A stretch of 64,000 nucleotides of DNA. Origin: Nemertoderma westbladi. Its lineage: Eukaryota; Animalia; Xenacoelomorpha. Below the pieces are notes generated by a model. That model had not been told where the DNA came from and made no database searches. It saw only the letters and a list, made by a program, of their open reading frames with translations. The DNA lies in contig JAUCBJ010008162.1 of the NCBI GenBank assembly GCA_032718475.1, positions 1 through 64,000 on the forward strand. The letters run 5' to 3'. Shown one piece after another: positions 9,738-64,000 of this stretch. Position numbers and translations under genes: made by a program. How positions within the stretch are numbered: the first letter of the stretch is position 1; every line of letters starts with the position of its first letter.

Positions 9738-9766
9738 TGATTGCCTGAGCCTCGGTAATGCGTTTT

Positions 9767-14500: not shown

Positions 14501-16499
14501 CTGACGAACTCCTGCGAATGCTGATGGATGAAATCGCCGCTTATGCCAGTCTCCTCGAATCATGATTCCTTAGAAGAATTAACACGCGCGCATTTTCTGC
14601 TCAAGAAGCCAGTGGCCATGCTTCCCATATCGGAGATTAATGTTGGGGAGAAATACTGTAAACAGATGTGGCAACTGATGCAGTTGTTATCCCGCCGTTT
14701 TGCGAAATACATTTTGAGAAATACTATCTTTCAACTCAGAACTAAATTGTTTGCACAGCAAGAAAATATCAGTGCAAGAGACATGGTTCTAATAGTCGAT
14801 TCGGATCTTCCCCGCAAGAGGTGGCAGATTGGTCATATCATCGAGACCCAGATATCCAACGACGGTTTCATGCGATCGGTAGAACTCATAGTTATGAGGC
14901 GTAACCATAGGAAGAAAGGAATAGTCTCCGAGACTCAACAACTCAATCGCCCAATTGGTCATCTGTGTCTGTTAGAGCAAGACCGAGAGTTATCCGGGAA
15001 CTACGGTAAACAGGGAACTCTACCAACGACCATCTCCCAGATCCAATATACATCTATAGACTCAATAACTCATTATTTACAGGAGCAGGTGTGTGAGAAC
15101 CCTTTATTTGTCTTTATTTTATATTTTATGTACGCCTTATTATGTAATTATATATTATTATAATAATTTTTATTTAATTTTATTTAGTAGAATAATTCTA
15201 TAAGCAATTATTCAGTAAATTAGTGCAATACCCTATGTATGCCATATTAATTAATATTATAATACATATTATATTTTAGTTAATGACTGGAAATAATTTA
15301 ATTTTTTCTCCTTTTCCTTACTGTCCGTATATTATTATAAATACGTGATTACAGAAAGATAGGTCACTTAATAAAGCAAATTCTACTTTGGTTCTACTGT
15401 ACTTTATGTATTATTGATAAAAGTAGAGTATTAGGAATGCAAAGTTCAGATCCTCGTGTCTCGGCTAAACCAAGCTCCGGGTAGCTCGGTAGACATTGGA
15501 AACGACTTGCCTCTTCTCACTGACATTGTTTATTGCAATATTGCTCTCATACCGTAGTCCTAAAATAATAGTATAGTAGGAGATGTACATTTAACAGTAA
15601 ATCTGTTAAACCATTTGACCATCTGAAATTCTAGTCGATTAAGATATTGTGGCACCCACTGATATACTTAAAAGACAAAATTTATAGAATCAGTGGTTAA
15701 CGTCCCCAGACATGTTCTGGAATAAATCGGTGCCCATCCTAATTAAAAATAATAAAATTCATGGGAATAAATTTTAAATTCATGTCCCCTCATGAATTAA
15801 ATGAAATTGTCAATTTAAGACAATTTATTAAAAAATTCCCTAAAATTACTCAATTAATAGATCGTGGGAGCGGAGATCACCCTATTACAACAGTGTGAGA
15901 GAATCTCCTAATGTGCATTTAAATAGCCGACAAAATTAATAAACATCATATAAAGTATAATAACCCGAGAGTCACTATTAAATATTACCCCAGATCTGTA
16001 TGCATGAGAAATACCCTAATTCTACTGCTAGTTGAGCATAATGTCACCTTAGCAACAACAGCGCTAGTATTAAATACAGAAAAAGAACATTAGAAAGCTT
16101 GCCTCATTGATTAGAACGCATAGTGTATAGTAGCCAGGGATACACAACAACATTGTGACATTCTGGAAGCACTGACTAACGGAAATGTGGCCATAAATGT
16201 ATGATTTGTTGTACGAATGTGGATTTGTGTGTTTATAGGTGAATGATACTACAAAAGTGTGTTTACAGTAGCGAGCCGCAATTGTGAAAGTCATCCTGTA
16301 CCTGCAATCATTACCTCAAATATATTGAGTTGAGCCCTTGAAACGGAAAGTTAGAGTGACTCACGCTGGTTGTTGTTGTCATTGTGTAGCTACAATGTTG
16401 GTGAAGATCATAGCGATAGCAGTACGCCATCGCTGAGGACCTCTGACTGTCCGGAGAGCAGTTGGGAGAAGAGGCAGTGACGCCTGCTGGCCTTCTTAG

Positions 16500-18461
16500 T
16501 ATAACTCTATATATTGACAAACTCTCACTTATATACAATGTTGGACTTCATAAAAGAGAATCTTGATATTATGGAGAGATATACTCAACCTCTACAAGCA
16601 TTCCTCGATAGTCTATCAAGCGGTGATATTGGTAAAGAACCTGCAGCGGATGATAAACGATACGTCGAGCCATTGATGACAGAAGAACAACTCCAGCGTG
16701 AATTAGATTATTGAAGGTTCACCTCGAGCTACAATCATTGAAATGATATGTATATGGATTTTCTAAATATGTGACACCCTATCGATCTACACGATACTGA
16801 CTATCTAGACACATAAACTGAGATGGTTTTATTTTGATCCCATGCGCAAAGACAATGTCGCAATAAACCAAGAATCGAGCATGATATCAGCCCCGAACGC
16901 GTGTAATCTCTGCCAGAGTTTTAGGGAAACACTCAAATGACCGGAAGAGAAGAATCAGTGAGAGTAGAAGCATATCGCGATTGGCGCAGTTTATAGTTTT
17001 ATGAGCATTCCCCTCTGTCCTTCCTTGGCCATCTAAGCCATATTCGAAAATACCGCACTTTCCAGGTGGTTAGCTGATGTGTTCAGTCAAACCATACGTT
17101 CCCATCCACTTACCCTGGGAACTAAGCTCGCTAAGTTAGATGAACATAACAAATTCATCCGATTTGAATGTTTCAGGCGCTTTCTGACTGAACTCACCTT
17201 CACACACTGCACTGACCAAACTCAGCCTGCAGGACTCTGCCTCTGAGAAACTAGATAGTGCTGGATTTGCAATCTTTAAAGATGTTTGCATTTAAAATAT
17301 ACATTCCTCTGTTCTACAGAGAATCCCTTGGGGATATTCCGTCATGGAAATCCAAACTGTAGATTCTTCAAAAAGAATGACCACATCTATTGAAGTGATG
17401 ACTTCTAGGAGCAATGATGATGATCACACTCTGGAGTGGTATTAAGGCCCTCAACATCTTACAGCCTATGACTATAGACATGCCAGCTATATTTCCCAGA
17501 AGCGGTGCCGATTATGCGCCTCTCGTGATCACACTACTCCATTAGACTCTGACGAACTTTGTTCTTATTTCAAAGAAAAACCCTTAATGGAGATTTATTG
17601 TGCTTATTGCCACATCAATAATAAGCATATCTTCGTTGTTTGTCCTTAGTTTATGACACAATGTCATTACTGTCAACTTAAAGGACACACTAGTTGTGAT
17701 TGCCCTTTTAGCGAAAGTCGACATCGAAAGTGTAGACAAGTTAATTGTACTTCGATACATACGAGCTTGGGAAGCTAGCGCAAATCTTGAGTCTGTGAGT
17801 CGCGCCATCATTATTATTCGGGACATGCGTAAGAGGGAGTGTATACATTTCACCCCTTCTCTTTCCCATAGTCAAGCAAAAAACTTGTATTTCCAGCTAC
17901 AAATTAATCAAAAACATTGGTTAGTGTATTTCCACCAAATATGTCTGGAAATATTTACGAAATATTAATCCGAGTAATATTGAATCTTATCATTTGATTA
18001 GCTTTATTAGTAGAGACCCCGAGTACATTGAGACGTTTGTAAATGCACACCCTGAGTTACAAGAAGTCCACCGACGTCCTTTATGAGTACAAAGAGAACG
18101 GGAATTAGAAAGAACCATTAAAGCCCGAAAATTTCTGACTACTCACAGTCCACCTACGGTGGTCGTACAGATGACTAAGACGGGACCAGTACAGGCTGCT
18201 GTCCTGAGACGGGCCTTAAAGGTTGTGCGCCCTCAATCCCTTGGGTCCTCTAATAAATGTGTTGATATCACAGGCCAATCAAAGGAGAGGAGAGAACCTC
18301 ATATCGACATTGCTCAACCGAGTACCTCGACCGGCGGATACAACGACCGAAATTCAAATCATTCATATGCAATTGTATTGGACCCATCCCCCAGGCGCTA
18401 TAGCTATCTTATTAAAGTGGCTCGTGCAGAGGAGAAAAAGACTGACTACTCAAAAGTTTAA
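16500..18461 (+). pseudogene. Decayed homolog of the exonuclease/zinc-knuckle ORF
   Basis: SFMSIPLCPSLAI*AIFENTALSRWLADVFSQTIRSHPLTLGTKLAKLDE (about 17000-17190) matches 38600-38863. CRLCASRDH...YCAYCHINNKHIFVVCP*FMTQCHYCQLKGHTSCDC (about 17505-17705) matches the knuckles of 60772-63372. Many stops and frameshifts; ends approximate. Confidence 0.7.
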
Positions 18462-33165: not shown

Positions 33166-33333
33166 CCCACACCGAATATATAGGGATTTTAAACTATAGC
33201 TGAATTTTCTAAGATCATTAAGGTTAAAAGATAAGAGGACATTGTGAATATTACAATTGTAGTTTATTATTTTTCAAACTGTAATAATTATTGCCTTCTA
33301 AGTAACTTTATCAATAATTAATTTCTTTACATT

Positions 33334-37440: not shown

Positions 37441-37592
37441 AACTCCTGCCTGAGCTGCAGCAGCTAGCTGTGGAGTAGGAACGGTTGAGTGCAGGGCTGT
37501 CTGAGGTAGAATTCCATCCAGGCGGATTCTGGTCTGAGTGTACAATCAATTACTTCAAGTGTATAGCACTATAAACTGCTTCAAGGGAATAG

Positions 37593-38403
37593 TGTAATAT
37601 TTACGTGTAAACTGTTGTTCCGTTATGTTGTGTTGTCGGTGGGCAAGTATACATGTGACTTGTTTAATGTTTATATTACAAGTAGGACGTTATGTTGAAT
37701 CTATTGCATGGTAAGCGCATGGTTCACTCGTACTTAACACATTATAGTATTACTAGATTATAGTTACAAGTTGGTGAATAATATTGCAGTATTGCGGACA
37801 CATACACTCGCACTAAATGAACCGAATCTATTACAGACAGGTTACAGTCAGCACTTACCGGGTATAAAGCAAAGTGGTGTGATCCTGGGTCTTGTATATT
37901 CATGAACAATATAATGCAATAATAATAACTATAATATGATGATACAATATGGTGATAAGATTTAATGTGCACAGCAAGGTGAAATTTTATAGATTCATGC
38001 TGGCTACATGAACAATAACAGGCCTCAGATGGTAATGGATAAGCCTAGGTAATAGCAGAAGAAACATTGATTATTATACATACAGTGAAGATGGAAACAG
38101 TCAATAACGCGCAGAACACCAGAAAGTATGGCAACCAATAGGAGTTTTAGAACTATGGCAACCGATGCTGGGCAATGGATAAATAAGATCAACGGTGGCA
38201 CATGGATTGGACACAAAATATTATGCGCACAGAAGTTGAATAGTTCTCTGATAAAAATAGAAGATTTCAATATGCAGTTAGCGTGTGCATCAAAACCGTT
38301 CCCTAAAATTACGTACAAGTTCAACAATCGTTCTATAAATGACACATTATTTAGTTTTGAGATTTGAGAGGTATATACAATGTTTCGGTGACTGTAGGTT
38401 ACA
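37593..38403. repeat. Uninterrupted LTR-like repeat (TGTAA...TTACA)
   Basis: Near-identical to 5368-7793 without its insert. Preceded by purine-rich AAGGGAATAG (PPT-like). No TSD seen. Confidence 0.75.
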
Positions 38404-38649
38404 TCGCTGTTGGATACTTACTACATACGATTAATGATTTAACTAAATAGATAAATGAAATTAATTAGGGGCCGATCAACCTCCACATATAAATAATAAA
38501 GTTTGTTGAATCACTTCCGGTAGGACTAAATAAGTATTAAACGACCTTTCACACAAACATTAGAGTTTGATATATTTACAAATATGGTAGGTCGGTAAAT
38601 TAATCGGCGTAAGTAGGTAAGTATTGGGTCATATAATCCTTCAAATATG

Positions 38650-39786
38650 AAAATACATAAATTTGACTAATAGGGGTTAGGAAACGCCAAAAGCATTCAA
38701 AGTTCAGGAATTTACCGAGTTCGTCGAGTTTGGCGAGTTGTGTTCCCAACAACAACGGGTGTGCTCTCAACGTGTGGCTACAGACATCTGCAAGCCATCC
38801 TGATAACGCTTGGTTCTCAAATATGAGGTACATCACTAACGATGGGCACAAAGGGACGCTCATAAAGCTATATATAGCGCCAGGGGTGGTGAGTGGTCAA
38901 TGAAAGTAATAAGGCGAATATGAGTCACCATAAACTTAGGAATATGTCTCGAAGATCGGTGTCTTTAAAGTTCCAACCATACTCTTGAAACGCAATATGG
39001 CCAGAGGACGTACAGTCAACTCTACTATACGTATCGTTGGTGTTGCGTCGATACATAACCCGGAAGAAGCCACGGGATTGTGCCCAAGGAAGGATGACTT
39101 GGGTGTCGACAAAGGTACCGGTATATGGTATGTCATGGACAATAGGAAAATCGTCAGTTAAATCCAGATATATGGCTGAACCGAGTTTATAAACTGATTT
39201 GTCCAGGAGAATGTCCAGTGCGGGTTGCGGCTATAATGCTGCATCTATTCCCATGGCCAGGTGTTGGTTCGTGTCATTGACATAAGCCTCTGCTTTGACA
39301 AACTGTTGATGTCTCGCACGGCGTTGATAGGCTGTCAAGGGTGGGAAAACGCTGTTGGTGCCGCGACAAGTACACATGAAAACGTACGTGGCTCCAGTGA
39401 GGCCGCGAATATGAATCAACTGAGTTGAACCAAACTCATGATCCGGCACTGAGCCTTCGTTATCATAGATCATAACGTCGTAACTGTGGATAGCATTAAC
39501 CATTCAGCATTAGCCACTTTGGTGGTCAGTTTTACTGGTTTCCATAACGTATCCAACAAACCGGATTCTCCATGCGTTATTCTTATAGATTCATAGCTAG
39601 GCATTTCACGTATATTCGCGTTTGGTTCGACATATCACAAATCATCTTCAAGGAAGTCTACATCCAAGTTCCAGTGAACGAGGCGATGGTAATCCATAAA
39701 TGTTTCTCATATTCCGGTTATATTCCTCCGAGTCGTTGTCGCTGTGTATCGAGATTATCTATTGAGTCGTCATTAGAAGTATCCAT
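38650..39786 (-). pseudogene. Decayed homolog of the DEDD-type exonuclease ORF (element D)
   Basis: My translation through the stop at 39231 gives VMIYDNEG...AL*PQPALDILLDKSVYKLGSAIYLDLTDDF...FVDTQVILPW...SGHIAFQEYGWNFK, then MYLIFENQALSGWLADV. This is colinear with CLIYDNEG...LLPTDIQKILFDFDVIKIGSDIKADVRNDY...CIDTQTLLAW...GIGYLAVLNGGIDFK...IYVVMECY in 60772-63372. Confidence 0.85.
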
Positions 39787-42700
39787 AATTGTTATCAGCA
39801 ATGTGTAAATATATATTAATAATTCAACAGAAGTAAACCAATGAGTCCATATAATTGTTATAATAACTTGAGTTTGTATAAGGCCGGCAATGCTGGGCCA
39901 CCCGTCCCTATCCCCACCCTGACACGGATCCAAGCTTCCCCTTGCCGCGTTTTATTGCTGCTGTGTCTATTCCCTATCCAACAGATGTGGAAGAACGGGT
40001 GGAAGACAATCAGCTAACACGCAGGAGAAGCTCAAGACCGGTCTCTCCAAGGGCTGTCCGTAAGGGGGTTATATAGACTGTTGCTGTGCAACTGAGATTA
40101 GTCTGCAATAGGGTTTCGGTTTGCTACAGTATACATACAGAGAATAGCTGTTATTTGTACTATCACGCAAACTAACACACCGAATGCCACAACACGCACA
40201 AATGTCCGTTACAAAACCTACTATTTCCCGAATATTAATATTTTAAATTTCCATGGATACTTATTAAATAAATTCAAATGCATCAACTCTAGGGAAAAAT
40301 GTACGATAAAACTCTAGAAATTTAATAAAAGGGTTGCACAAGTGACACACCAGCATCCCAATATTTTAATTAGCTATTAATTATAACAAGGATCAACATT
40401 CGGTAAATATAGCGGTGGAATAGGGTATTGCTCATTCACACAGATCTGGGCCAACTGTGATATTATTACATCTTTGTTGGTTGTATTATTTAAATTATTT
40501 ACTTGGCTGTGGCAAACACCACAACCAAGTAAATAATTTAAATAGTATCGGTGTTTATACTATTGTTGTATTAATGTCGCAATTAAAGGGTTGATGGTAT
40601 TAAGCTATTAATGAATAATATAAATATAAATTTACGCGATCTAGTGACATAAACTAAGTTTACTCATCCTTGGGAGAGAGCCACTAAGCAGACCACAACC
40701 GTTCCCGTAATGCTTATTATTACAGTGACTTGAACGGATTTATGTGAATGTGATATTGTATTAACAATATCAAGCTAGCTTGGTTCTTGAAGTTTCAAGC
40801 CAACTAATAATTGACATATCTTACTGTACTCTGGCGATTGACAAGAAGCGGGAGTAGTAATTAAGACTCTGCATTCAAGTATTATTAGGCCATCATAATA
40901 CAGCAAGACCAAGGTTTGTTATTGTCATGCGTCATGTTTAATAATGACTTATCATAACTAGTGTAGTTTATTATAATTTTATTTGTAACGCCCTTATCTA
41001 CTCGGGTTACACATGAAGTGGCGGGCCGTCTCCAGAATTTACCCAGAGTTTGGTTTAACCGAAATAAAGGATATGGATTCCGCATTCAATTGTATTATCA
41101 CCATCATCATACAAGTATTAAGGGTTTTGGTTGGTTGCGCGTCATGTTTAATAATGACTTATCGCAACATGTTGTCAAGAATTGAGCTCAGGTTTCATGC
41201 GTCGTGTGTATAACGGCTTATCATGAAACATCCCACTATTCATAATAATGTTCTAGAATGTTCTAGAACTGAGATCAAGTTTCATGCACTGTGTATAAAT
41301 CAGTTTATCATGAAACATCCCGCAGTCCTATTGTTTATGTCATTTTATTCGTAATTCTTCTAGAACTAAGCTCAAGTTTCATGCACTGTGTATAAAACGA
41401 TTTATTATGAAACATCCCATAGTCCTATTGTTATTTGGGACAGAAGCAATGTAAGAATTAATTACGTTAGCCTGTCAAGCTAAATGTATGGCATATTTTT
41501 AAAAACGTATGGGGTCAGTGGTTGACGATGCAACATAACCCGTTCCCACGCTTGAGTGTGATACACAGCACACTCAAACGTTCCAAGGGAGTTAACTAGA
41601 CCAATAAAAATTATGTCAAGTCTGTGGGCTTGACTTCTTGCTTGCCGTAGTTGCCAGATTCTTCGCGTGCCATTTCTAGCAGGCAGGGTTGGCCTATAGG
41701 ACAGTTGAGTTTTTGGGGGACAAAGCTTAGTTTGCCCTTTTCCCTCAGCACTATGGGATCTACTGATCTTACCAGGCCATCCACTATCATTCTACTATCA
41801 TTCTCCTTCCACATATACGTCGAACGAGGTCTCGAGCTCGCAATATAACTGGGCTGCTGAATCCTAGGGGGTCGAAATAAGCACTGAGTATGCCTAGGCG
41901 AATACGTTTGGTTCGGGTATCGCCCTTTCTCAACTTCACTTTAAATACCATAGTGTCACGTTCTGTAGGCCAACAAAGACTTAATGGCTTAGTCTCCGGT
42001 AGGCCGTCCTTATTTAAGTCTAGTTCGGTATCGCTACGCTCGGCGGGGGTATGGCCTTTAAAAACTCACGGGAATTGCTCATGAGTTTTGTTAGGCAAAA
42101 TCCTCCAAGTTTCAGGCAGTTTACTGTCCTTGACTTCTGTTACGATCGGGGCTGGTTTCGGGTTGTTGTCTATGTAAATATCCCATTTGAAATTGTTTAT
42201 GACCAGAGGTGGAAATTCATCCCTATGGTCATCAGCCACACGATGCAGTCGTAAGTCGGATGGTGTATCTAATAGGATAGTCATTGGAGACACAATGTCG
42301 GGTTCACTGTACCTAGTAAGGAAACAGTCTTGGTCTGAGGACAGGGGTGCGTCACTATCACTGTCAGTTTGGTCAGGGGTAGTCAAGACATCCTCTTCTG
42401 TCTCTATGGTCTCATTGCAACGGTGGGTCACTAAGTTGCAAGTGTTGGTGTCTGTATTTGTCAGTCCTTTTTGCTCAAACAGTGTCTTCCGAGAAGGCCC
42501 GGTACAGAACCATCCCACTCTGGTCTGACAGGCATAGGCTGACATTGGCTCTCCAGAATCTCTAAGGCCTCTGGTACATTTTGGCCTATCAACATCTGTA
42601 CACCTGGGTAGTCTGGGGTGAAATGGGGAATATTGTACTTTCTTAGGAGAGCGTCATCATCCCAGTTATAAGCGTTTGCCTGACTTTTGGCAAAATCCCG

Positions 42701-43997
42701 GATGATAACCATCTTTATGTTAGACACCATATCCCAGCCACTGAGATCTTGCAGAGTGGACAGGGATGCCTTATAGTACTTTGATTCAATCGTGGATTGC
42801 CAACGTTTCATTATCCCAGATAATGTTAGCTTCATGTCATCCCCGTTCCCTAGCGAACAAGGATTCGGCTAACTCTGCGTCTATGAAGGTGCCCGTACTT
42901 CTGGTGTCCATTAAGGCATTTACCACAATGCTACTACTTCCCGCGTTGAGCTGGACTTGGAGCACAGGAAACTCTCTGACTCCTGCATCCTGAAATGACC
43001 GGGTGTTGGGATTGCTCTCATTTTTGAGACAATCTTCCAATGCGGGTTCCTCAGAGGTAAAGGCCTCATATACACTAACATGGTTACAGCATTCGTCGTC
43101 ATTTGTAAACTCTCCAGGGTAGAATTCATTCACTTCTTCATCGGATGAATCTGTCTCAAAATCAGTGAAGTGTACACGTGGGTCCACCTCTCCCTTCTGG
43201 ACCTGGTCTAGCTGTAGCAAGGGGTGATGAGAGCCTTGACATACCAGACACGATTTCGTGCCTATTAGGTGGCAGTCACGTCTCACATGTCCCAGTCTAA
43301 GACACAAGAAGCATGTCGACAAATCTTTAGCTGTCCATCGTCTCTCTTTAAGTGTCTTTTTTTATGAAGGTGTTATATTTCACGAGGGGGTGTGTGTCTA
43401 TTTTACAAAGAGGGCACTTGGCGTTTGTATTGTCGGTGGTAATTATAGGATGTTGTGTTCATCTTAGGTGCTATTAGCCTTGGGAGGAGGTATCATCCTA
43501 TTCGGCTTGCCCTGACCACCATGCTTCCTCTCACCTCTGGAGTTCACATCATCAGAATATATGTTTTTGCATCCCTCCGTGTCTGAACCAGAGTGATCAG
43601 AGGGACACTCTTCATAGTTGGTGACATAAGCGTATCATTTCTTGGTCGCTGTCTTATCAGTGGTTTTAGTGTCTGAACGGGTGCTTCTTTCCTGGTTTAC
43701 CATAATAAGATATATGGACGCTTCTGCCTTTAAGAAACCTCTAAACGAGTCCATATCGGGGAAGCATCTGTGTTTAAGTTTGTAATTATAAGTGTATCGG
43801 TCCCATCTGGTTCCAATGGAGCCCTTTGGGAGTGCACTGGAAACGAATTGTACTGTCATGGATGTATCATACACTTGTTTTTGTCCTAGCCAATCAAGTT
43901 GGTGGCAAATTTCCTCTTCCTCATCTCTAAACTCTACTATCTCACTTTGAGCAAATCTATTTTTAGAGATTAATCGATCCTACATATTGCGTGCTAG

Positions 43998-50709: not shown

Positions 50710-52000
50710 TGTTCGCGGTATTTCAACTTTCCATAACGCGAGTTGAATATTTTTGTATTTTTATTAAAATTGATTATTCCGATATTACTACTGGGTGCGG
50801 GACCATGGGTTTTGGGCACATTCAATAAACTGGGGGCGATTTATGGGCGAACTTTGGGGCAACTTACAGGGTACGGGAATAATTTCATAGTTATAAGGGC
50901 CAGGGGGGATGGAAAATGCAAGCAGTATTCAGGTTAGCCTGAGTACTATTAGGCCCTGGCCAACTTCCTGCTGCCTGTAGGGGTGGATTTGGTAATGTGC
51001 CAGGCCTAAAGGACAAGGACTGCCCTTAGCGGTCCCTGGCCAACGGCAGCTACTACGAGCCTGAAAAGGACTCGGAACGCTGACTGCTTGTGTCAGGGAT
51101 TTGCGACGGGCACCGACGGCCCCTTAGTAGCCAAGCCGTTCTGGTTCTCGATGATCGAACCCCGGGGTTCGTGAGGGGTGGAGCGGACACGCGAACAGGT
51201 GGCCAACTTAAGACTGCCCCCTGACCTAAGCCGTACTGGTTCTCGATGACCGATCCCTTCGGGGTTCGTGAGGGGTGGGACGGACATGCGAAAGGGCTGG
51301 CCACAGGACTGGTTTGACAAGGACTGCCCTTAGCGGTCTCGGGTCAACTGCAGCTACTACGAGCCTGAAAAGGACTCGGAACGCTGACTGCTTGACTGTG
51401 ATTCGCGACGGGAGCCGACGACAGACCCCTTAGCCAAGCCGTTCTGGTTCTCGATGATCGTTCCCTTCGGGGTTCGTGAGGGGTGGAACGGACACGCGAT
51501 GGGGTCGAAAGACAAAGGACTAGACTCGACTAGACTCTACTGGCCTACCGACTGTTCGGAGCAGTTTCTCGGCTGCCGAAGCGACTACGAGCCTGAAAAG
51601 GACTCGGAAAGCCTAGGTGGTTGGGTTTCTGTGATGAACTGACGGACCCCTAGCCAAGCCGTTCTGGTTCTCGATGATCGAACCCTTCGGGGTTCGTGAG
51701 GGGTGGAACGGACACGCGAACGGGTCCACCGACACGACAGACTCCTAGCCAAGCCGTACTGGTTCTCGATGACCGAACCCTTCGGGGTTCGAGAGGGGTG
51801 GTACGGATACGCGACAGAGTCTACCGACTGGACCGACCCTTAGCCAAGCCGTGCTGGTTCTCGATGATCGTTCCCTTCCGGGTTCGTGAGGGGTGGAACG
51901 GACACGCGACAGGGTCGACCGACACCGACACTACGGCACTAAGACTGGGACTGAGGGAAAATCTGGGGAACATTAGGTAGGCTAAAATTCTGAGCGAACA
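50710..52000 (+). repeat. 5' LTR of element E (right end uncertain, about 52000-52240)
   Basis: Starts TGTTCGC; the exact inverse GCGAACA ends at 52000, but no clear PBS follows. Contains internal repeat arrays. Confidence 0.75.
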
Positions 52001-52580: not shown

Positions 52581-52772
52581 ATGGAAGTATCGATCACACC
52601 CATTGATATAATTCAAGTTGAGCCAGGAATCTGGCACGTCGAAGTTGAGGTACAAGGAACGAACGTTGGACGATTCAGGATTACTGTTCGGGTGGTCCAA
52701 GCTGAGTACAATACCTACGAGGAACTGTTTTACGACATCGCGTATCTCGCCATCGACGAGGCGTTACAATGA
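52581..52772 (+). CDS. 63-aa upstream ORF overlapping the gag start (ATGA)
   Basis: Its TGA stop overlaps the gag ATG at 52769-52772; protein-like composition. Confidence 0.35.
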   Translation: MEVSITPIDIIQVEPGIWHVEVEVQGTNVGRFRITVRVVQAEYNTYEELFYDIAYLAIDEALQ

Positions 52773-55700
52773 CCACAAATAACATATCCGATACCGACGA
52801 GATGGATCACCACACAGACTCGGAAGCCGACGAGGTCCCAAACGTCAAGAACATGACCCGTCGGTTAGGGGCTCTTAAAGGCGGAGTAACCCGAGCGTAT
52901 CAACGGATGGAGAAACAACTCAAGGGAGTCAAAACCCCCCTCAACGAGGTACAAACTCAGCTTCAAAGTATCCGAAATATCCTACAGCGGTACGAAAGAA
53001 TGATACAGGCGTACCAAGAGCTCGTTCCTCCCACCGATCAGGAAAACTACCCCAAGCTGGAAGAACACGTTGTACATCTAGATGGGTTCCGCAAACAACA
53101 CCGAAGGACCCTCAGCCTGGTGAGAGGCTATGAGGAACAGTATTACAAGAGGGCTGAAAGAACAGACGCGGAATCAGTACGATCCTCCAGCATCAGGACA
53201 GGAGTACATCACAAGAGAATGGGGTCCACCAGAAATCAGCACTCCAGCGCTAGGAGCGAGATATCCGGCTCAGCGCGCAGTTCTCAAGGGGCGCCGCCAC
53301 TCCGAGACCAACTGAGAGAACGGAAGGCATTAGCCCTCAAAGCTCGGATGGAAGATGAGTATATTCAACTGCAAGCCGAGCAAGATGTACTAGCCGCCGA
53401 AACACAAAGGCGAGAAGCCGAACAAGCGGCCGAACGACAGGCGGAACAACGCGAACAGGAGGCCGAACAACATAGACGAGAGGCCGAACGACAGGCGGAA
53501 CAACGCAAACAGGAGGCCGAACAACGCGAACAGGAGGCCGAACAACATAGACGAGAGGCCGAACGGCAGGCCGAACAACGCAAACGGCAGGCCGAACAAC
53601 ATAGAAGAGAGGACGAACGACAGGCCGAACAACGCAAACAGGAGGCCGAACAACGCGGACGAGAGGCAGAACGAGAGATCGAACAACGTAAATGGGAAGC
53701 GGAAATGCGTAAACAACACGCCGAGGCCCAAGCAATTCTCATCCACAAAAAGAATGCGGATATTGCAAAACTCGCAGAATACGAAGCCGCACTTATCGAA
53801 CGAGATATTCAACTCTACGAGGACTGGGAAAGGGATATAGATCAGGAATATGAACCAATTCCGGTACCGGAGTTAGAAAAGTCATTTACACCAACAGCGG
53901 CGAAACCTCCGAAACCCGAGATCCCGCCTACCAAACAGTCTACGCTATCGGCACAAGCCCCGGTGTTCCATCCCCCACCAGCTACGCTAAAGAATGAGGA
54001 ACCTTATTTCCCATCCAACACCACGACAGCGAGTGTACCCAAGTACGAGCCTGAAAAGGACTCGGAACGGGACGCCACTCCCCGATCAAATAACCCGTTT
54101 ACATCGACACCACAAACTCGTAGCCGCGTCATTATTAAAACTCCACCTATTATTGATCCATCAAGTATGGGAGTGAGTGCCAATAACTATAACCCTCCGA
54201 GTCACTCCAGTTCAGATGACGTCAGCATCATCCGGGCGTTGGAGAACCGCCTTGCCATGCCTAAGATGGAGATTCGCACCTTCGAAGGAGATCCCGTCGA
54301 TTACCTCAGATTCAAGAAACGGTTCTTCGCGCAGATTGGATCAACGGACATAGCCGACGCACAGAAATTGGTATATTTATCGCAATACCTGGGTGACAAA
54401 CCACGCAGAATTGTTGCATGTTTTGAAGGAGGTTCTCATGAGGCATACTATGATGCATGGAAAACTCTGGATAAAAGATACGGAAATACCGGAACTATAA
54501 TTAATAAAACTCTAGAGAGACTGATACAGGACGCGGGATCACTAGGAGACCCACAGAACATACAGGAATTCTCCGACTCTATGAAGGATGCCTACTATAC
54601 TCTGAAACCCTTGAATAAGGAGGACCAGGTGAACAACATTCTAAACCTCCGACAGATCGCCCGGAAGTTCCCCGGATGGCTACAAAGTAAGTGGGCTTAT
54701 AAATGTGTAGACCTCCGGCGCAGACATCCAGATCGAGATCCTAGCTTCCTTGAGATGTCGGCATTCCTGGACGATATCTCCGAAGCCATGAATGACTCGA
54801 TGTTTTCCAAACAAAGTCTCGCAAAGTTGGACGGAATAGAGAGCAACTCCAGGAGTAAGATAACCCCTCCGAAACCAAGATTCCGACCCCCACCGGTGAG
54901 TACGATGGCCATCACCATGGCTGAGGATTCCGACGACGAAGACTACGAGGAACCGACATCCGCCGAGGAATGGGCATGTTATCTCGCGAATTGGGCACCC
55001 GAAAGGGAAGGCATCACAAATTCCCTGCTCTGTCTCTTCTGTGGGGAGAAACATAAAGTGGAATTCTGCAGAAAGTTTCAGTTCGCCGACCTCGTCCCAC
55101 GCTTCGAGGCGATAATGAAACACCGAGGATGCTTCCGGTGTCTTGGAACAGGTCACTACGTTCGGGATTGCGACCAAAGGTCGTGCTGTGCTGTCTGTAA
55201 CGACCAACGCCATCACACGCTCCTCCACATCCCCGCGAACTTCGATTTTACTACCCTCCCCTTTCGGATCGAAGCCAAGCGAAGAGGAGAAACAAACCAC
55301 GTCTTCAAAGGAACCCGGACAACCCAACGGAGAGAAACCAACCCGTTTAAAATCTCCACCAATACACCACAAGTAACAAATATTTCGGCCACGATTAATC
55401 TTATAAATCGCCGCTACATGGTTTTCGCAAAGGTAATCCCAGTAAGGATCCAAGGAGTCGGCAAATCTTTGACGACACTCGCGTTCCTCGATAACGGGTC
55501 CGACGGAACCATCATCGACCGGGATTTTCTCGAGCAACTCGGACTAGAATATGAACCTTGTAAACGGCCCATACAAACCATCACCGATAACAGAGAGGTA
55601 GAGTCCGGGGAGGTGCAACTCCAGATGGAAGGAGTGATGAAGGGCTACGAAACGGCTAAGTTAACCATAAAGAACGCCTTGGTACACACAGACCTCCGGG

Positions 55701-58700
55701 TGCGGTTCCGACAATCAGCCGAGTATGCCCCCCTCATACAATTGGACCGGGACGATGTAGACCTGAGGTGCCCGCAGTTGGACGTAAACCGTATCACCCT
55801 ACTGATCGGACTCGATACACCGGAACTACACATCCCAACCGGAGATATCGCCCGATCTATAAACCAGGATGACGGATTTTATGCTGAACGAACAATAATG
55901 GGATGGACACTCTGCGGCATTAAGGAGGAAACTACGGACACCTATACCTACCTTCCCAAATGTCAGATTAAAGAGAATGTAATCTCCGTGGGTTATTGCT
56001 CAGCTTCGGATCTTGACGAGGATTTGTTTCTGGAATCCGAGAAAACTCAACGAGAGATGACGAAATATTTTAATTTGGAGACCCAGGAGTTCGCGGAAAA
56101 GGACGAAAACCCATCCGAAGAGGACCAATATTGCATGGACGTTCTCGACCAGGCCACGTTTAAAGACGGACATTGGTGTTCACCTATGTTATGGAAGGAT
56201 CCAAACAAACCAATGGCAAACAACGCCAGCATGGCACTTAAACGACTTAAAGGGATTCTACGCCGGCTGAATGACCAACCTGAAATAAAGGAGAAATATA
56301 ATACCGTAATCCAAGGATATCTCGATGATGGATTAGCAGAAATGGTACCACGGAATGAACTGCAAGGTGGTAAAAGAACATATTATCTCCCAACCCACTA
56401 TGTAGTAGAAGCCCGCAAAGGGGGGAAAATCCGAGTGGTAAATGATGCTGCCGCTATGTACCAGGGCGAATCCCTAAACAGTCAACTTTACACGGGACCC
56501 AACATATATAGCACACTCATCGGCGTATTGATCAGGTTCAGGGAAAACCGGGTAGCATTTACCTGTGACATCAAGGCCATGTTTCATCAAGTTCGTACGT
56601 TACCAAAAGACTCGGACTGTCTACGTATCCTATGGACGGATAAAACGCTTACTCAACAGGAGATTAGCCAACTCACGATACGGGACGTAGACGTAATGCG
56701 TATGGTCGTCAGGATCTTCGGCGCTAAGGACTCGCCGGTAGCATGCAGTGACATGCTAAAGAGGACGGCAACTATGTGCGAAAACGAGTTCCCTCCAACC
56801 GTCATAGAAACCATTCGACGATGTTTCTACGTGGACGACGGATGCGCCGGCGCGGATAACGTGGATGAGGCATATCGGCTAGCAATGGGGATGGTGGAAT
56901 GTCTAAAGAAAGGAGGGTTTCCGCTCGTAAAGTTCAGATCCCATGACAAAACACTTATGGAAAAGTTTCCGGAGGACATCCGGCTGGAAGATAACAAAAT
57001 GTATTCGGAGGATGTAGAACATCGTGTACTTGGGATTGAATGGGACATAGAATCAGACGAATTCATCTTCAAGTATAAACCCCTAACCAAGCCTATGACA
57101 AAAAGGGGATGTCTGTCGATAAAAAGTGCAATCTTCGACCCACTGAATTTCATATCTCCAGTAACCTTGGCCGGAATGAACCTGATTAAGGAAATGTGGA
57201 TAGAAGGACTGGGATGGGACGAAGAGCTCCCCCCATACCTTAGCGTCAAATGGAGAAAATGGACGGAGCAGCTCGAACACCTACATCTTATGCGAATACC
57301 TAGACCGTTCTTCCTCGATAAACTGCCCACCGATATCTTCCAGCTCCACACCTTTTCGGATGCTTCAAATACCGGAATCGGCGTAGTAACCTTCTTACGG
57401 AGACTAAGTAGCGATGGAAACGGCGATACAAGTTTCTTATTCTCCAAAGCAAAGACAGTATCCGGGGAATTCGTAGCAACGATTCCGAGACTCGAGCTAC
57501 AAGCTGCAGTTTGGGCAGTAAGACAGAATCGCATGGCCATGCGGAACCTACGGATCCCCATAGAATCTCAACACTTCTGGGTAGATTCGAGTATAGTTCT
57601 TTATTATCTCCACTCTCCATCACGGCGTCACACCACGTTTGTTGCAAACCGAGCCACGGAGATTAAACAATGTACCGGCCGAGAACAGTGGCATCACGTG
57701 AACGGGAAGGAAAATCCAGCGGACTTATCAAGCCGAGGCGCCACCCCAAAACAACTCGGTAAGAGTAAACTCTGGCTTACAGGCCCGGAATTCCTACGGC
57801 AGCCACAATTAACATGGAGTACCCGATTCGACCCCGAGCTCGATAGCGGAAAATACTCCGAGGACGACAAAGAAATCCGTAAAATCCATCGAAGCAACGC
57901 GGTGGAAATTTATAGTTGTCTGACTGAGCCTGCAAAGGACTCGGGCAGGCACTATAACGTCGCGACGATCACTCAACTAGCGACGTCTTTACATCGGTTG
58001 ATCGAGCGAACTTCATCCATGAGACGGCTCGTCCACCACGTTATAACCCTTCGCAACTTCCTACGGTGGAAAAACAACAAACCGATAGTTCAACGGAATA
58101 TACAAGAACTCATCATTGCGGAGAAGTGTATTGTTAGATATGTCCAGAAAGAAAGTTTCCCCGATGAATGGGAACAACTTAGTGCGGGCAAAACGTTGAA
58201 ACCGGACAGCCCAGTCTACCAACTGAGACCAATGATGGGAGAGGACGGACTGATCCGACTGAATACCCGGATGGCAAACGCCCCGGTCGACTATGAGATT
58301 AAATACCCGGCGCTTCTGCCCGGAACGTCGACACTAGCTAAGCTATTAATTCTACAATGTCACGAGGACAACCACCACGCAGGACAGAATTGGATTATAG
58401 CCAATATAAGACAAAGATATTGGATCACCCACATCCAGCCACTGATCCGGAAAGTGTTGAAACGTTGCTTCACCTGCAGACGTTACCTAGCGCCACCAAT
58501 CACCCAAAAGATGGCCGACTTACCAGCCACCCATCTACAAGCGGACTCCCCACCATTCTACGTCACCGGAGTGGACTGTTTCGGACCGTTCACGGTTATT
58601 GAACGACGATCCAACATCAAATGCTGGGGAGCCATCTTCACCTGCCTAAGATCTAGGGCAATTTACCTAGATATCGTGGTAAATCTGACACAACACGCAT

Positions 58701-59530
58701 TCATCAACGCTCTGCGTCGGTTCGTGGCGAACAACGGGACATGTCGCCACATGTATTCCGATAATGGTACAAACTTTGTGGGAGGAGAAAGAGAACTTAG
58801 AGAGGCGATCGAGGGATGGTTTACCGATAACACCGCATCCCAAGTCTGGAAGGAACACCAGATACAGTGGCACTTCCAGACCCCCCTAGCACCCCATACA
58901 AGCGGGGTATGGGAGAAACTGATCGACCTAGTGAAACGGTCCATGCGCGTCGCTCTAGGCGATACCCGGGTAACCCATGACACCCTCCGCACAACATTCT
59001 GCGAGATCACGGCTACCCTGAACAACCGACCCATTGTTCCTATCCGCGACGACCCCACAGACCTGGAACCCCTCACTCCTAACCACTTACTGGGGAGACC
59101 CAAAACCCACCTCCTCCCGGAAACCATGTTCCCGGATCCCAACGAGATCGCAAAACATACAAACTGGAAAAAGGCCCAAGCGTTGGCAGCGCATTGGTGG
59201 AGGATTTGGGCCCAGGAATATCTCATAACCCTCCGGACCAGGAGGAAATGGAACAACACCCACCGGAACGTCGCAGTTGGCGACATGGTACTAGTTAGAG
59301 AAGATCTCAAAGACCGCGTTCACTGGCCTGTGGCGCGGGTCGTGACCATACACCCAAGCAAAGACGGACTTGCGAGGACTGTGACGATACGAACGAAAGC
59401 GGGCCACTACCAACGCCCCATCCAGAAGCTGTGCCTTCTTGAAGGCAATGACAGTGGTGATTCTACAAGAGGTGATAAGTTCCCTACGGATCCTACTGTG
59501 GACATTGGTGACAATGACAAATGCGTTTAA
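52769..59530 (+). CDS. gag-pol: Bel-Pao Gag-Pol polyprotein, 2253 aa, single ORF
   Basis: Coiled coil, DUF1759-like core (FEGDPVDYLRF), three knuckles (CLFCGEKHKVEFC, CFRCLGTGHYVRDC, CAVCNDQRHHTLLH), protease LDNGS, RT YVDD, Pao-type RNase H (FSDAS, IPRLEL, WVDS, NPADLSSRG), integrase (HHAG...CFTC, GVDCFGP, SDNGTNF, GVWE) and a DUF5641-like tail. Confidence 0.97.
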   Translation: MTTNNISDTDEMDHHTDSEADEVPNVKNMTRRLGALKGGVTRAYQRMEKQLKGVKTPLNEVQTQLQSIRNILQRYERMIQAYQELVPPTDQENYPKLEEHVVHLDGFRKQHRRTLSLVRGYEEQYYKRAERTDAESVRSSSIRTGVHHKRMGSTRNQHSSARSEISGSARSSQGAPPLRDQLRERKALALKARMEDEYIQLQAEQDVLAAETQRREAEQAAERQAEQREQEAEQHRREAERQAEQRKQEAEQREQEAEQHRREAERQAEQRKRQAEQHRREDERQAEQRKQEAEQRGREAEREIEQRKWEAEMRKQHAEAQAILIHKKNADIAKLAEYEAALIERDIQLYEDWERDIDQEYEPIPVPELEKSFTPTAAKPPKPEIPPTKQSTLSAQAPVFHPPPATLKNEEPYFPSNTTTASVPKYEPEKDSERDATPRSNNPFTSTPQTRSRVIIKTPPIIDPSSMGVSANNYNPPSHSSSDDVSIIRALENRLAMPKMEIRTFEGDPVDYLRFKKRFFAQIGSTDIADAQKLVYLSQYLGDKPRRIVACFEGGSHEAYYDAWKTLDKRYGNTGTIINKTLERLIQDAGSLGDPQNIQEFSDSMKDAYYTLKPLNKEDQVNNILNLRQIARKFPGWLQSKWAYKCVDLRRRHPDRDPSFLEMSAFLDDISEAMNDSMFSKQSLAKLDGIESNSRSKITPPKPRFRPPPVSTMAITMAEDSDDEDYEEPTSAEEWACYLANWAPEREGITNSLLCLFCGEKHKVEFCRKFQFADLVPRFEAIMKHRGCFRCLGTGHYVRDCDQRSCCAVCNDQRHHTLLHIPANFDFTTLPFRIEAKRRGETNHVFKGTRTTQRRETNPFKISTNTPQVTNISATINLINRRYMVFAKVIPVRIQGVGKSLTTLAFLDNGSDGTIIDRDFLEQLGLEYEPCKRPIQTITDNREVESGEVQLQMEGVMKGYETAKLTIKNALVHTDLRVRFRQSAEYAPLIQLDRDDVDLRCPQLDVNRITLLIGLDTPELHIPTGDIARSINQDDGFYAERTIMGWTLCGIKEETTDTYTYLPKCQIKENVISVGYCSASDLDEDLFLESEKTQREMTKYFNLETQEFAEKDENPSEEDQYCMDVLDQATFKDGHWCSPMLWKDPNKPMANNASMALKRLKGILRRLNDQPEIKEKYNTVIQGYLDDGLAEMVPRNELQGGKRTYYLPTHYVVEARKGGKIRVVNDAAAMYQGESLNSQLYTGPNIYSTLIGVLIRFRENRVAFTCDIKAMFHQVRTLPKDSDCLRILWTDKTLTQQEISQLTIRDVDVMRMVVRIFGAKDSPVACSDMLKRTATMCENEFPPTVIETIRRCFYVDDGCAGADNVDEAYRLAMGMVECLKKGGFPLVKFRSHDKTLMEKFPEDIRLEDNKMYSEDVEHRVLGIEWDIESDEFIFKYKPLTKPMTKRGCLSIKSAIFDPLNFISPVTLAGMNLIKEMWIEGLGWDEELPPYLSVKWRKWTEQLEHLHLMRIPRPFFLDKLPTDIFQLHTFSDASNTGIGVVTFLRRLSSDGNGDTSFLFSKAKTVSGEFVATIPRLELQAAVWAVRQNRMAMRNLRIPIESQHFWVDSSIVLYYLHSPSRRHTTFVANRATEIKQCTGREQWHHVNGKENPADLSSRGATPKQLGKSKLWLTGPEFLRQPQLTWSTRFDPELDSGKYSEDDKEIRKIHRSNAVEIYSCLTEPAKDSGRHYNVATITQLATSLHRLIERTSSMRRLVHHVITLRNFLRWKNNKPIVQRNIQELIIAEKCIVRYVQKESFPDEWEQLSAGKTLKPDSPVYQLRPMMGEDGLIRLNTRMANAPVDYEIKYPALLPGTSTLAKLLILQCHEDNHHAGQNWIIANIRQRYWITHIQPLIRKVLKRCFTCRRYLAPPITQKMADLPATHLQADSPPFYVTGVDCFGPFTVIERRSNIKCWGAIFTCLRSRAIYLDIVVNLTQHAFINALRRFVANNGTCRHMYSDNGTNFVGGERELREAIEGWFTDNTASQVWKEHQIQWHFQTPLAPHTSGVWEKLIDLVKRSMRVALGDTRVTHDTLRTTFCEITATLNNRPIVPIRDDPTDLEPLTPNHLLGRPKTHLLPETMFPDPNEIAKHTNWKKAQALAAHWWRIWAQEYLITLRTRRKWNNTHRNVAVGDMVLVREDLKDRVHWPVARVVTIHPSKDGLARTVTIRTKAGHYQRPIQKLCLLEGNDSGDSTRGDKFPTDPTVDIGDNDKCV

Positions 59531-60771: not shown

Positions 60772-63372
60772 ATGGACCCAAATCGCCAAATTATCGGCGA
60801 ATTACGTAACACGGTAGATCTACTGGAATATTCGCAACCCGGATCCCCTGACTTTGATACAAATTGGAACATTCTGCTAAATGAGAACGTACGAGAAATT
60901 AAATTCACCGGGCGAGAGGGACCGGATTCTAAGAATCTACGAGCCCTCCAGTTAGCCGATGCTACTACGAGCCTGAAAAGGACTCGGAACGCAAAGGCAA
61001 CCGGAGGGGACGATTCGTCGTTTTGGGAAACGTTCCGGCAGAGCGTCTACAGATCCCGATGTTTGATCTACGACAACGAGGGAAACGCGACGCCCACCTC
61101 GAAGGCGATTACGTTGGCGAGATGTCAGAGCTTCGTCGACGACAAGAGTACGTACCTCGCCCACTGGGGAAACTTGTCGGAGTGTACGGCGACGCTTCGA
61201 GAGGAACGCGTATCGATTATCCAAAACCGCGACGACTACCAGGAAAAGTACGGGGCGAAAGAATACGGTCGATCCTTAGTCGTCGTCCTCGGAACCCTGG
61301 ACGGTTTGGTACTGGTGTGCCGAATATTCCCGACACCCAGACATGAAGTGCAGGCAGCCGGAGCGATCTGGTTGCTGCCTACGGATATCCAAAAGATCCT
61401 CTTCGACTTCGACGTCATTAAAATCGGGTCGGATATCAAGGCGGACGTCCGGAACGATTACGCGAACGCTCCCGCAGGAAGAAACCGACGAAACGACCTC
61501 AACGCACTTAGCCATTGCATCGATACTCAAACGCTGCTAGCCTGGTTACGATTCGCCGAGTTCATGCGAGGATTCCAAGAAGTGAGACCGACGAAATCCG
61601 GAATCGGCTACCTCGCTGTGCTCAACGGCGGTATCGACTTCAAACCCCAGAAATTCCGGGACTATAATAAAATATACGGCGGATACCCGGGATTAGAGAT
61701 AAAGAGCGAGCGAGAGGGTCGATGGAAGGACGTCGATCGGAAGTGGACGATACACCAAAGGTGGGAGAATCCCGATCGACGGAGCTATATCTACGTCGTT
61801 ATGGAATGCTACACCGTCGCTAAGTTTATCTGCAAGACTCTAGATAACCTCATCAAGGCGGTCCCCCTTTCCTTCGTCGACTACGACTGGAACGAGGTTA
61901 TAAACCACGCGTTTAAAGCGGTCGAGAACATTACACCGGGAGAATCGAAAACGCCCGCCGTTATCGAATCCTGGGACGAGAGCGGACCTTACGATATCCC
62001 TACGATTACCGAACTTCTCGGTGCGGAGGAGCCTCTGATCTCCTCGGAAGGGGAAGAGATATGGCTAAACGAGGGTGTTCTACTCTCCACCCCGAAGCGA
62101 CAACTCGAACCGGAGGCCGCGTACGGACCGGCCGCCAAACGGGTTGCCTCGGCCGAACCGATAAAGAGAGCAGGCGTCTACACCCCACGCGGCTCCGGTA
62201 GCCCCGCGAGAGAGGTAGCCACTACGGCTGCATTGAGCGACTTCGGCGACATATGCCAACGGTTATCCCCGTATCCTTTCCCGGGTGGCGAAGATTGGTC
62301 GTCGGAGATCCCGAGTACCAGCCACCTACGGACCCGCTCAGCGATACTGGTCGAGGAGGGACCCAGCGATGCGCCGACACCCGATGATCTCCTCGGTATC
62401 CCTCCGTCGAAAACCCCGGCACCTCTTCGCCGACCAGCGGTAGCTACTACACCCGCCGTTCCTCAGGACCCTATGCGACTAACCCGTTGGTACGCCGAGC
62501 AAACTGAATGGATCCACCGCCAGAAACGGTCGTCCGAGTTGAGACCATCGGGACATAACGAGGGTTATCGGAGCGAAAACATACTACGCAAGAGCCCAGC
62601 ATTCCGCGGGCTACCGACCACCGAGAATATTCCGAAGAGCGACCGACGACTCGAATACTACGCCGGCGTTCCGATTCCGATATTCCCCGGTCGGGAGATG
62701 CAGTTGGAGGTATGCGACGACTGCGGTTCGGAGCAGTGCCCACGCAGCAGAAGGAATCGGGTTACCGATTCTTGCCTCCAGCTCCTTGGGATACTCTATT
62801 GCCCATACTGCGCGATATCGGGCCACGACGTTTCGGTCTGTCCGATCCTTTATAACCTCTGCACCACGTGCGGTTTCCGTGGACATTCCGCTAGCCCCCG
62901 CTGCTATATTAAATGTCCAACCAAAGACGTTACCGCTATGGGCAATATGGTCATGTTTGAGACATACGCAAACAGCCATTTAAAGACCAAGTTTCGGAGA
63001 AACGCTCGGAATATTGCGCAGGAGATGGCGTGCGGATATTTCTCCTTCCCGGAACGCCTCCACACGTCGGCCTCGCTACCCTTCCATTACGTGGATCTGC
63101 TACTGAGCGCCGGATTATTCGGTCCATTCGAAGTTATTAGACGATTATATTCGTATAAAGAGGAGTTCGGTGACGGAGAATGGTTCCTAGAGGCACGCAA
63201 CTCCGAGTTGGAAAGACGAACCGACATGATCCCGATGCCTTCGAAAGGAAGAGCCGCCAGGAGACAAGCCGAAGCGTTACTCACGATGGATGTTGACGCT
63301 CCTCTACCAGCCATAGCGATCGATGAGAGTCGACGGGCGAAGAGACGGAAGGCGTACCAGAAAAAGAAATAA
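60772..63372 (+). CDS. 866-aa ORF2: WRN/EXD/Mut-7-like DEDD 3'-5' exonuclease domain, disordered linker, CCHC zinc-knuckle cluster
   Basis: ExoI IYDNEG (D101/E103). LPTDIQKILFDFDVIKIGSDIKAD (ExoII D225) fits the WRN-type LP..L..LL.D..I.KVG..I..D pattern, followed by CIDTQ. ExoIII IYVVME (Y341/E345). Knuckles CDDC...CPYCAISGHDVSVCP...CTTCGFRGH...C. Confidence 0.8.
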   Translation: MDPNRQIIGELRNTVDLLEYSQPGSPDFDTNWNILLNENVREIKFTGREGPDSKNLRALQLADATTSLKRTRNAKATGGDDSSFWETFRQSVYRSRCLIYDNEGNATPTSKAITLARCQSFVDDKSTYLAHWGNLSECTATLREERVSIIQNRDDYQEKYGAKEYGRSLVVVLGTLDGLVLVCRIFPTPRHEVQAAGAIWLLPTDIQKILFDFDVIKIGSDIKADVRNDYANAPAGRNRRNDLNALSHCIDTQTLLAWLRFAEFMRGFQEVRPTKSGIGYLAVLNGGIDFKPQKFRDYNKIYGGYPGLEIKSEREGRWKDVDRKWTIHQRWENPDRRSYIYVVMECYTVAKFICKTLDNLIKAVPLSFVDYDWNEVINHAFKAVENITPGESKTPAVIESWDESGPYDIPTITELLGAEEPLISSEGEEIWLNEGVLLSTPKRQLEPEAAYGPAAKRVASAEPIKRAGVYTPRGSGSPAREVATTAALSDFGDICQRLSPYPFPGGEDWSSEIPSTSHLRTRSAILVEEGPSDAPTPDDLLGIPPSKTPAPLRRPAVATTPAVPQDPMRLTRWYAEQTEWIHRQKRSSELRPSGHNEGYRSENILRKSPAFRGLPTTENIPKSDRRLEYYAGVPIPIFPGREMQLEVCDDCGSEQCPRSRRNRVTDSCLQLLGILYCPYCAISGHDVSVCPILYNLCTTCGFRGHSASPRCYIKCPTKDVTAMGNMVMFETYANSHLKTKFRRNARNIAQEMACGYFSFPERLHTSASLPFHYVDLLLSAGLFGPFEVIRRLYSYKEEFGDGEWFLEARNSELERRTDMIPMPSKGRAARRQAEALLTMDVDAPLPAIAIDESRRAKRRKAYQKKK

Positions 63373-63528: not shown

Positions 63529-63536
63529 GGGGGGGA
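63529..63536 (+). other. Polypurine tract
   Basis: GGGGGGGA, one base before the 3' LTR TGT. Confidence 0.8.
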
Positions 63537-63537
63537 C

Positions 63538-64000
63538 TGTTCGCGGTATTTCAACTTTCCATAACGCGAGTTGAATATTTTTGTATTTTATTAAAATTGA
63601 TTATTCCGATATTACTACTGGGTGCGGGACCATGGGTTTTGGGCACATTCAATAAACTGGGGGCGATTTATGGGCGAACTTTGGGGCAACTTACAGGGTA
63701 CGGGAATAATTTCATAGTTATAAGGGCCAGGGGGGATGGAAAATGCAAGCAGTATTCAGGTTAGCCTGAGTACTATTAGGCCCTGGCCAACTTCCTGCTG
63801 CCTGTAGGGGTGGATTTGGTAATGTGCCAGGCCTAAAGGACAAGGACTGCCCTTAGCGGTCCCTGGCCAACGGCAGCTACTACGAGCCTGAAAAGGACTC
63901 GGAACGCTGACTGCTTGTGTCAGGGATTTGCGACGGGCACCGACGGCCCCTTAGTAGCCAAGCCGTTCTGGGTCTCGATGATCGAACCCCGGGGTTCGTG
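63538..64000 (+). repeat. 3' LTR of element E (partial)
   Basis: Matches 50710-51173. Confidence 0.97.

Follow-up and report, generated by a model that had tools for sequence, protein, structure and literature searches.

The LTR retrotransposons of animals are generally taken to encode gag and pol, in some cases env, and little else, and to our knowledge hardly any means of resisting piRNA silencing has been described among their genes. Among cellular proteins, EXD2 and mut-7/Nibbler are DEDDy exonucleases of the PF01612 family. The closest described retroelement systems are Juno, Vesta and Athena/Terminon of bdelloid rotifers, in which an additional ORF3 with a DEED motif encodes a putative DEDDy exonuclease (Rodriguez, Kenefick, and Arkhipova, 2017, PMC5408684), and the accessible portions of two further papers describe these ORFs again (PMC6431247; PMC6338049). 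According to the accessible text of the 2017 study, DEDDy extra ORFs occur in rotifer Ty3/gypsy elements, within-genome variation was tested for the env-like and GDSL ORFs and found to be neutral, and the small-RNA roles of DEDD proteins are treated with reference to mut-7, EXD1 and Maelstrom (PMC5408684). The locus described here bears on the question of whether such DEDDy ORFs are useful cargo or passengers. For the Bel/Pao superfamily, the ICTV account of Belpaoviridae names only env-like third genes and gives a size of 4.2-10 kb (PMC8742986), and the accessible part of a survey by de la Chaux and Wagner (2011, PMC3118150) likewise presents env-like extra genes only and makes no mention of an exonuclease. 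Our search of the literature, which covered sources other than Repbase and subscription journals, where such families may be held, found no Bel/Pao exonuclease ORF.

The window, a repeat-rich stretch of 64,000 nt from a contig of Nemertoderma westbladi (JAUCBJ010008162.1), contains an intact Bel/Pao retrotransposon, element E, on its plus strand, with a 5' LTR at 50710..51173 (a minimum length) and a 3' LTR at 63538..64000 (cut by the window end) that are 99.57% identical across 465 nt, with one mismatch and one gap, and with a polypurine tract at 63529..63536 ahead of the 3' LTR. Its gag-pol is a single open frame of 2274 aa (52706..59530) in which Pfam finds DUF1759, a knuckle, a protease, Peptidase_A17, an integrase zinc finger and DUF5641, that is, the PR-RT-RNH-IN order together with Pao-specific families. 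Element E thus resembles Belpaoviridae in its LTRs, polypurine tract, one-frame gag-PR-RT-RNH-IN and Pao-specific Pfam families, and differs from the published descriptions in its length, at least 13.3 kb versus 4.2-10 kb, and in carrying an exonuclease-like ORF. This second gene, ORF2 (60772..63372, plus strand), begins 1242 nt downstream of the gag-pol frame, is intact and encodes 866 aa counted from its first ATG, arranged as an exonuclease-like domain with putative site residues D109, E111, D233, Y349 and E353 (P0001 numbering), a low-complexity linker, a Cys cluster, two zinc knuckles (685-698 and 705-719) and a basic C-terminus in which 9 of the final 15 residues are K or R. An env-like identity for this third gene was considered and rejected, as the protein has neither a signal peptide nor a C-terminal membrane anchor; its sole hydrophobic stretch (173-196, 19-residue mean 2.08) lies inside the domain and forms two strands in low-confidence structure models. 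A scan of 36000-64000 against Rfam returned 0 matches.

Element D, a decayed copy on the minus strand, retains a gag zinc knuckle and protease remnant (42858..43313), an RT/RNase H connection remnant (41814..42248, 32% identical to E pol 1351-1497) and, from the C-terminal region of the integrase (DUF5641), the final part (41614..41781). Because this integrase tail directly follows the connection remnant, most of the RNase H and integrase must have been deleted. Behind a spacer of about 2.1 kb (39504..41613), the final 300 nt or so of which may be a decayed start of ORF2, lies the broken ORF itself, so that the order of integrase tail, spacer of roughly 2 kb and pseudogenised ORF proposed in the initial annotation holds, with the qualification that the tail comprises only the last 55 or so codons. 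The first part of the ORF2 remnant (38928..39503, ExoI-like to post-ExoII) carries IYDNEG at 39470, the ILLD..VYKLGSAIYLD block at 39212, VDTQ at 39110, GHIAF at 39002 and NFK at 38972 in one shared frame, interrupted once by an in-frame stop at 39233; the second, ExoIII-like part (38606..38890) is in a different frame and carries YLIFE at 38830. All of the motifs that had been named for this copy, the Y-xxx-E included, were therefore located, on the minus strand. The remnant extends to about 38606 without the Cys-rich C-terminal part, and no zinc knuckles were found downstream of it. A second Y-xxx-E at 38876, in the string YI-stop-LYE, was rejected as the ExoIII motif, since it contains an internal stop and is non-homologous.

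The homology of this remnant to ORF2 of element E, which the initial annotation had tied to a significant alignment of the two peptides, is borne out by several comparisons. Frameshift-aware alignment of ORF2 residues 91-400 to element D scored 78, with maxima of 47 among 158 other tiles and 48 among 200 shuffles; a semi-global alignment gave z=12.3, a score reached by 0 of 2000 shuffles; and pairwise BLASTP returned E=3e-6, while tblastn against the entire window reached only E=0.007. The IYDNEG hexamer alone is weak, as a shared 6-mer arises in 48 of 5000 shuffles; a merely coincidental sharing of motifs by the two elements is nevertheless rejected, since the alignment scores exceed all shuffles and other tiles. 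Between the motifs the residues have diverged as had been noted, E and D being about 30% identical over ORF2.

A further copy of ORF2, in element C (14.5-17.8 kb, plus strand), makes the finding stronger than the initial annotation had seen. It again shows the order of integrase tail, spacer and ORF2, with an integrase C-terminal region at 14537..15037 (DUF5641, E=4e-10), an ExoIII-like block at 16983..17198 in which 50 of 72 residues are identical to D and a stop codon occupies the first position of the motif (stop-x3-E), and a Cys-rich part at 17500..17720 with zinc knuckles at 17599 and 17662 that are homologous to those of E (score 73, a value that none of 2000 shuffles reached; the highest score elsewhere among 1254 tiles was 52), the pattern in both elements being C-x2-C-x4/5-H-x4/5-C. 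Two short motifs of the D spacer (41040-41087 and 40410-40450) occur in C in the same order, as do the landmarks in general, and the distance from the second of these motifs to the ExoIII-like block is 953 nt in C versus 1529 nt in D. No ExoI/ExoII part was found in element C, which, with the shortfall of about 580 nt, fits a deletion in that copy. As D is without knuckles and C without ExoI/II, the two retain different parts of an architecture that is whole in E. Assignment of C to the Pao lineage comes from its DUF5641 match, and that of D from homology to E and C; no LTRs of either were found in the window. Over ORF2, C and D are not alignable as DNA, no alignable N-terminus was found among C, D and E (scores 27-37), and the window holds no further ORF2 remnants besides these three. 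Protein searches outside the window yielded no passing homologue (1577, 981 and 384 candidates), and none appeared in the viral, metagenome and genome contigs or phages that were scanned, a result that says little on the range of the family.

Selection on the gene was assessed at two depths. In a shared block of 71 codons, C and D differ at 22, 10 and 53 first, second and third codon positions, giving pS 1.01, pN 0.22 and pN/pS 0.22 (0.14-0.31), with pN biased low by the choice of the block on protein similarity; the integrase tails of the same pair give similar values (pS 0.89, pN 0.26, pN/pS 0.29). Saturation of silent sites beside 69% protein identity would be hard to obtain without selection. 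At the shallower depth, contigs from public runs cover 30 of 30 bins of 56500-63950 in runs X1 and X2, 27 of 30 in X4 and 11 of 30 in X6, with 8142 X1 records across all likeness classes on the E region, and such broad coverage implies that ORF2 is present in numerous copies of the E family, although among the contig pieces listed no single one spans pol to ORF2. Run X1 may come from the same sample as the window. Among 40 of 509 variant records, 38 of them in coding DNA, 9 of 14 ORF2 variants are silent versus about 29% expected (p=0.007; for expectations of 26-31%, p 0.003-0.009), as are 17 of 24 pol variants versus 26-31% expected (p<1e-4), and pN/pS is about 0.2 in both genes. None of the 12 indels considered, from 23, falls within either ORF, and 15 of the 20 joints listed include deletions inside both ORFs in some copies. 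The purifying selection postulated in the initial annotation is thus upheld by both comparisons, and from the coding pattern we infer that the gene may well have a function useful to the element.

Divergence of ORF2 tracks that of pol. Between C and D, ORF2 identity is 69% and that of the integrase tail 62%; between D and E, the values are about 30% for ORF2 and 26-32% for pol, a level of pol identity between E and either D or C that agrees with the earlier assignment of the copies to distinct Bel/Pao families. Such parallel divergence, here among three copies and without a root, is as expected from one old capture followed by joint descent, although it does not prove it. It speaks against the view that ORF2 moved between families by recombination, as from a shared pool, rather than being inherited with pol; this we regard as quite unlikely, even though an exchange of DEDDy ORFs among retroelement types has been proposed for rotifers in the accessible text of PMC5408684. 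ORF2 is accordingly an old, selected accessory gene common to three Bel/Pao families, whose distribution one ancient capture would explain. The earlier statement that the ORF is a lineage trait rather than a one-off capture stands insofar as a recent capture in E is excluded; a single ancient capture, in turn, is still compatible with the data.

That the ORF encodes an exonuclease was assumed at the outset, and support for this is moderate, coming from atlas features and ordered motifs as against blank or weak library and profile searches. The ORF2 domain matched nothing in Pfam (PF01612 by hmmscan included), PHROG, NCBIfam or the PDB sequences. In a language-model atlas 24 of 30 matches fell within the PF01612 set (score 0.92), with 162 of 256 features in common, which is below the 170 typical of same-family matches on a measure uncalibrated for parts of proteins; we take this match as a lead, not proof. 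The DEDDy references used for comparison were 55 of 60 bacterial PF01612 domains, five having been excluded for a wrong frame. Against our own DEDDy profiles, E fell inside the shuffle range and D exceeded 500 shuffles for the pooled profile only, at 3.2 bits, and hhalign aligned the ExoII stretch alone, at a probability of <=2% and above 60 column shuffles for the pooled set only. When seven DEDDy blocks from the 55 references were placed in order with long spacers allowed, D reached z=4.3 and E, barely, z=2.3, both above every one of 150 shuffles and of 20 tiles taken from the other proteins of the window, with scores (3 and 19) far under the 105-176 of the references, which were scored with themselves included. 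In this test ExoII and the next strand fell at homologous places in D and E, and ExoI was placed at D-x-E in D but not in E, while the ExoIII block was missed. The structure models of ORF2 are too poor to be of use (pLDDT 37 and 35), and the fold search, which found no match at E<=0.001, carries no weight.

Residue by residue, a D-x-E ends the first strand, as in ExoI, at D109/E111 in E and in the identical hexamer of D, the stretch being absent from C, and the ExoII Asp follows the L..D..V.K.G block at D233 in E and at the aligned Asp in D, a placement given by PSSM, hmmsearch and hhalign. The third motif departs from the references: where 55 of 55 have Y-x3-D, E and D have Y-x3-E and C has stop-x3-E, and the two small residues that follow the ExoIII Tyr are replaced by bulky ones. 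As ExoIII carries Glu, ORF2 is not classed as a strict DEDDy member. The inter-motif spacings, 100-124 and 115-120 aa versus 57-79 and 69-85 in the references, both exceed every reference by 20-50 aa. Compared by eye, the last block of D shares its spacing, and its L and Y, with ExoIII of the references, and D and E each show, as the references do, a two-strand-like stretch directly after ExoI. The D-x-E, ExoII Asp and ExoIII acid are retained in each copy that still holds the stretch, and positions at which E and D agree are over-represented within the motif blocks (21 of 44 versus 31 of 129, p=0.004, the blocks being partly chosen by eye). From ExoI through two strands, ExoII and the following strand to ExoIII, the arrangement and appearance are those of cellular PF01612 enzymes (WRN-like, RNase D, PolA proofreading), from which ORF2, compared here with bacterial references only, differs in falling under every library cut-off, in Glu as its last acid and in its long insertions.

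The blank or weak results of the library, profile-profile and fold searches would be explained if ORF2 were a conserved accessory protein of some other fold with exonuclease motifs arising by chance; as the atlas features and the ordered-motif test agree independently, and as the kept residues concentrate in the motif blocks, we hold this to be very improbable, and the domain very probably has a DEDDy fold of the WRN/RNase D-like kind. Given that fold, it is likely to be catalytic. The change of the ExoIII Asp to Glu, the bulky residues after the Tyr and the long insertions could instead indicate a DEDDy fold devoid of catalysis, with ORF2 as an RNA-binding adaptor that moves or shields element RNA in the manner of EXD1, Maelstrom or Egalitarian. 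Inactive DEDD derivatives are described from the piRNA pathway in the accessible text of PMC5408684, yet the four positions stay acidic between proteins that share about 30% of their residues, a constraint for which a dead enzyme would have no use, and we see little likelihood in the adaptor. The label of exonuclease is thus likely, short of proof.

Taken together, the data show where this extra gene of three families lies, that its copies are homologous and have been under purifying selection, and how its domains are arranged; we place somewhat more than even confidence in a model by which it would encode a likely metal-dependent 3'-to-5' DEDDy exonuclease with zinc knuckles. This model proposes that the gene, which sits between the integrase and the 3' LTR, goes back to a host gene, probably captured a single time ahead of the divergence of C, D and E, and that it was then passed down together with pol. 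As ORF2 is separate and lies 1.2 kb behind pol, it would probably be expressed from its own or a spliced transcript and not within Gag-Pol. The zinc knuckles are predicted to have an affinity for single-stranded nucleic acid and may hold RNA, the 3' ends of which the nuclease domain could trim, possibly in the nucleus, as the basic C-terminus would allow. In this way ORF2 may serve as an accessory factor that counters silencing, trimming or degrading the precursors of host small RNAs, or antisense RNA, directed against the element; among the roles considered we rank this one highest, if tentatively, favouring host silencing RNA as the target because ORF2 stands apart from Gag-Pol and enzymes related to it help to shape small RNAs. 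With the same fold and selection, the enzyme might instead proofread or polish the element's own nucleic acid, removing 3' ends that are mismatched or non-templated from cDNA or RNA as reverse transcription and strand transfer proceed, after entering the particle by way of nucleocapsid-like knuckles. The knuckles of E and C do look like nucleocapsid fingers, the accessible text of PMC5408684 gives DNA as a substrate of DEDDy enzymes of the WRN type, and element E, at 13.3 kb or more, is longer than the family range (4.2-10 kb, PMC8742986); however, packaging is not assured for a protein outside Gag-Pol, and most Bel/Pao elements replicate without such an ORF, and we consider such polishing rather unlikely.

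By analogy, the exonuclease proposed here would work like the rotifer DEDDy ORF3 class, in another superfamily and with another active-site variant. As far as the accessible text on ORF3 goes, the two share a separate exonuclease-like ORF at the env position of an LTR retrotransposon, apparently kept catalytic residues with one Asp-to-Glu change, and Cys/His zinc motifs, the latter in some rotifer copies. They differ in that the host element here is Bel/Pao, in that the fourth residue has changed (DEDE) and not the third (DEED), and, compared by description and not by sequence, in the 866-aa protein with its two C-terminal knuckles; selection on the ORF is demonstrated across families here, unlike in the accessible account of the rotifer ORFs. 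That an old Bel/Pao clade uses an active nuclease with an unusual DEDE site and nucleocapsid-like knuckles to resist small-RNA silencing, and acquired it separately from the rotifer case, is doubtful as a complete proposition; if true, exonuclease accessory genes would have arisen convergently as a counter-defence in LTR retrotransposons of animals, and this would be the first such case with selection demonstrated across families. Being conserved across families saturated at silent sites and intact in a young family of many copies, ORF2 is a ready candidate for biochemical test.

Two further features of the D region may be added. The D spacer contains 97-nt tandem repeats at 41174-41432, and the ORF2 remnant of element D is bounded by a young interspersed repeat (37591..38404, strand unassigned) that is 99% identical to a copy at 5366-7794.

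A motif of roughly 30-47 nt from the LTR of element E, the intact plus-strand Bel/Pao retrotransposon, recurs in the 5' leader, within gag and within the start of ORF2, the exonuclease-like second frame 3' of pol, with copies at 51034-51080, 51338, 51566, 54024, 60946-60992 and 63861 (repeat family D11). The frame of the motif differs between its copies, and in some contigs of public runs covering E-family copies the ORF2 copy is joined to the 3' LTR copy. Conceivably this motif acts as a cis-acting RNA signal or as a template switching site; a search of Rfam across 36000-64000 returned no match (0) for it. Repeats also occupy the leader of E, where 95-nt units with a hairpin-like core span 51118-51925, as well as its spacer between pol and ORF2 (three 83-nt repeats, 59804-60228) and the spacer of the decayed minus-strand element D (97-nt tandem repeats, 41174-41432).

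A fourth Bel/Pao element, on the minus strand at 7881-13839, comprises gag, protease and RT, is 27-31% identical to E and has a repetitive N-terminal frame of 784 aa. It is interrupted within RT, and its 3' part, where an ORF2 would lie, is absent. The breakpoint is the same young repeat found at the border of D, a sequence of ~810 nt whose two copies (5366-5700 plus 7313-7794, split by a ~1.6-kb insertion, and 37591-38404) are 99% identical. A 688-aa frame at 2-2065, extending beyond the window edge, has a skewed composition akin to that of the 784-aa frame.

An intronless plus-strand frame of 561 aa with a coiled-coil region (33322-35007) may be another element-borne ORF. It adjoins a repeat at 32036-33165, of which an inverted second copy lies at 49356-50511, and its cadherin-domain match is weak (E=3e-5, below cut-off). 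Elsewhere, a satellite with a 19-nt unit repeated about 87 times adjoins a non-LTR reverse transcriptase frame (21997-23634 and 24203-25813).
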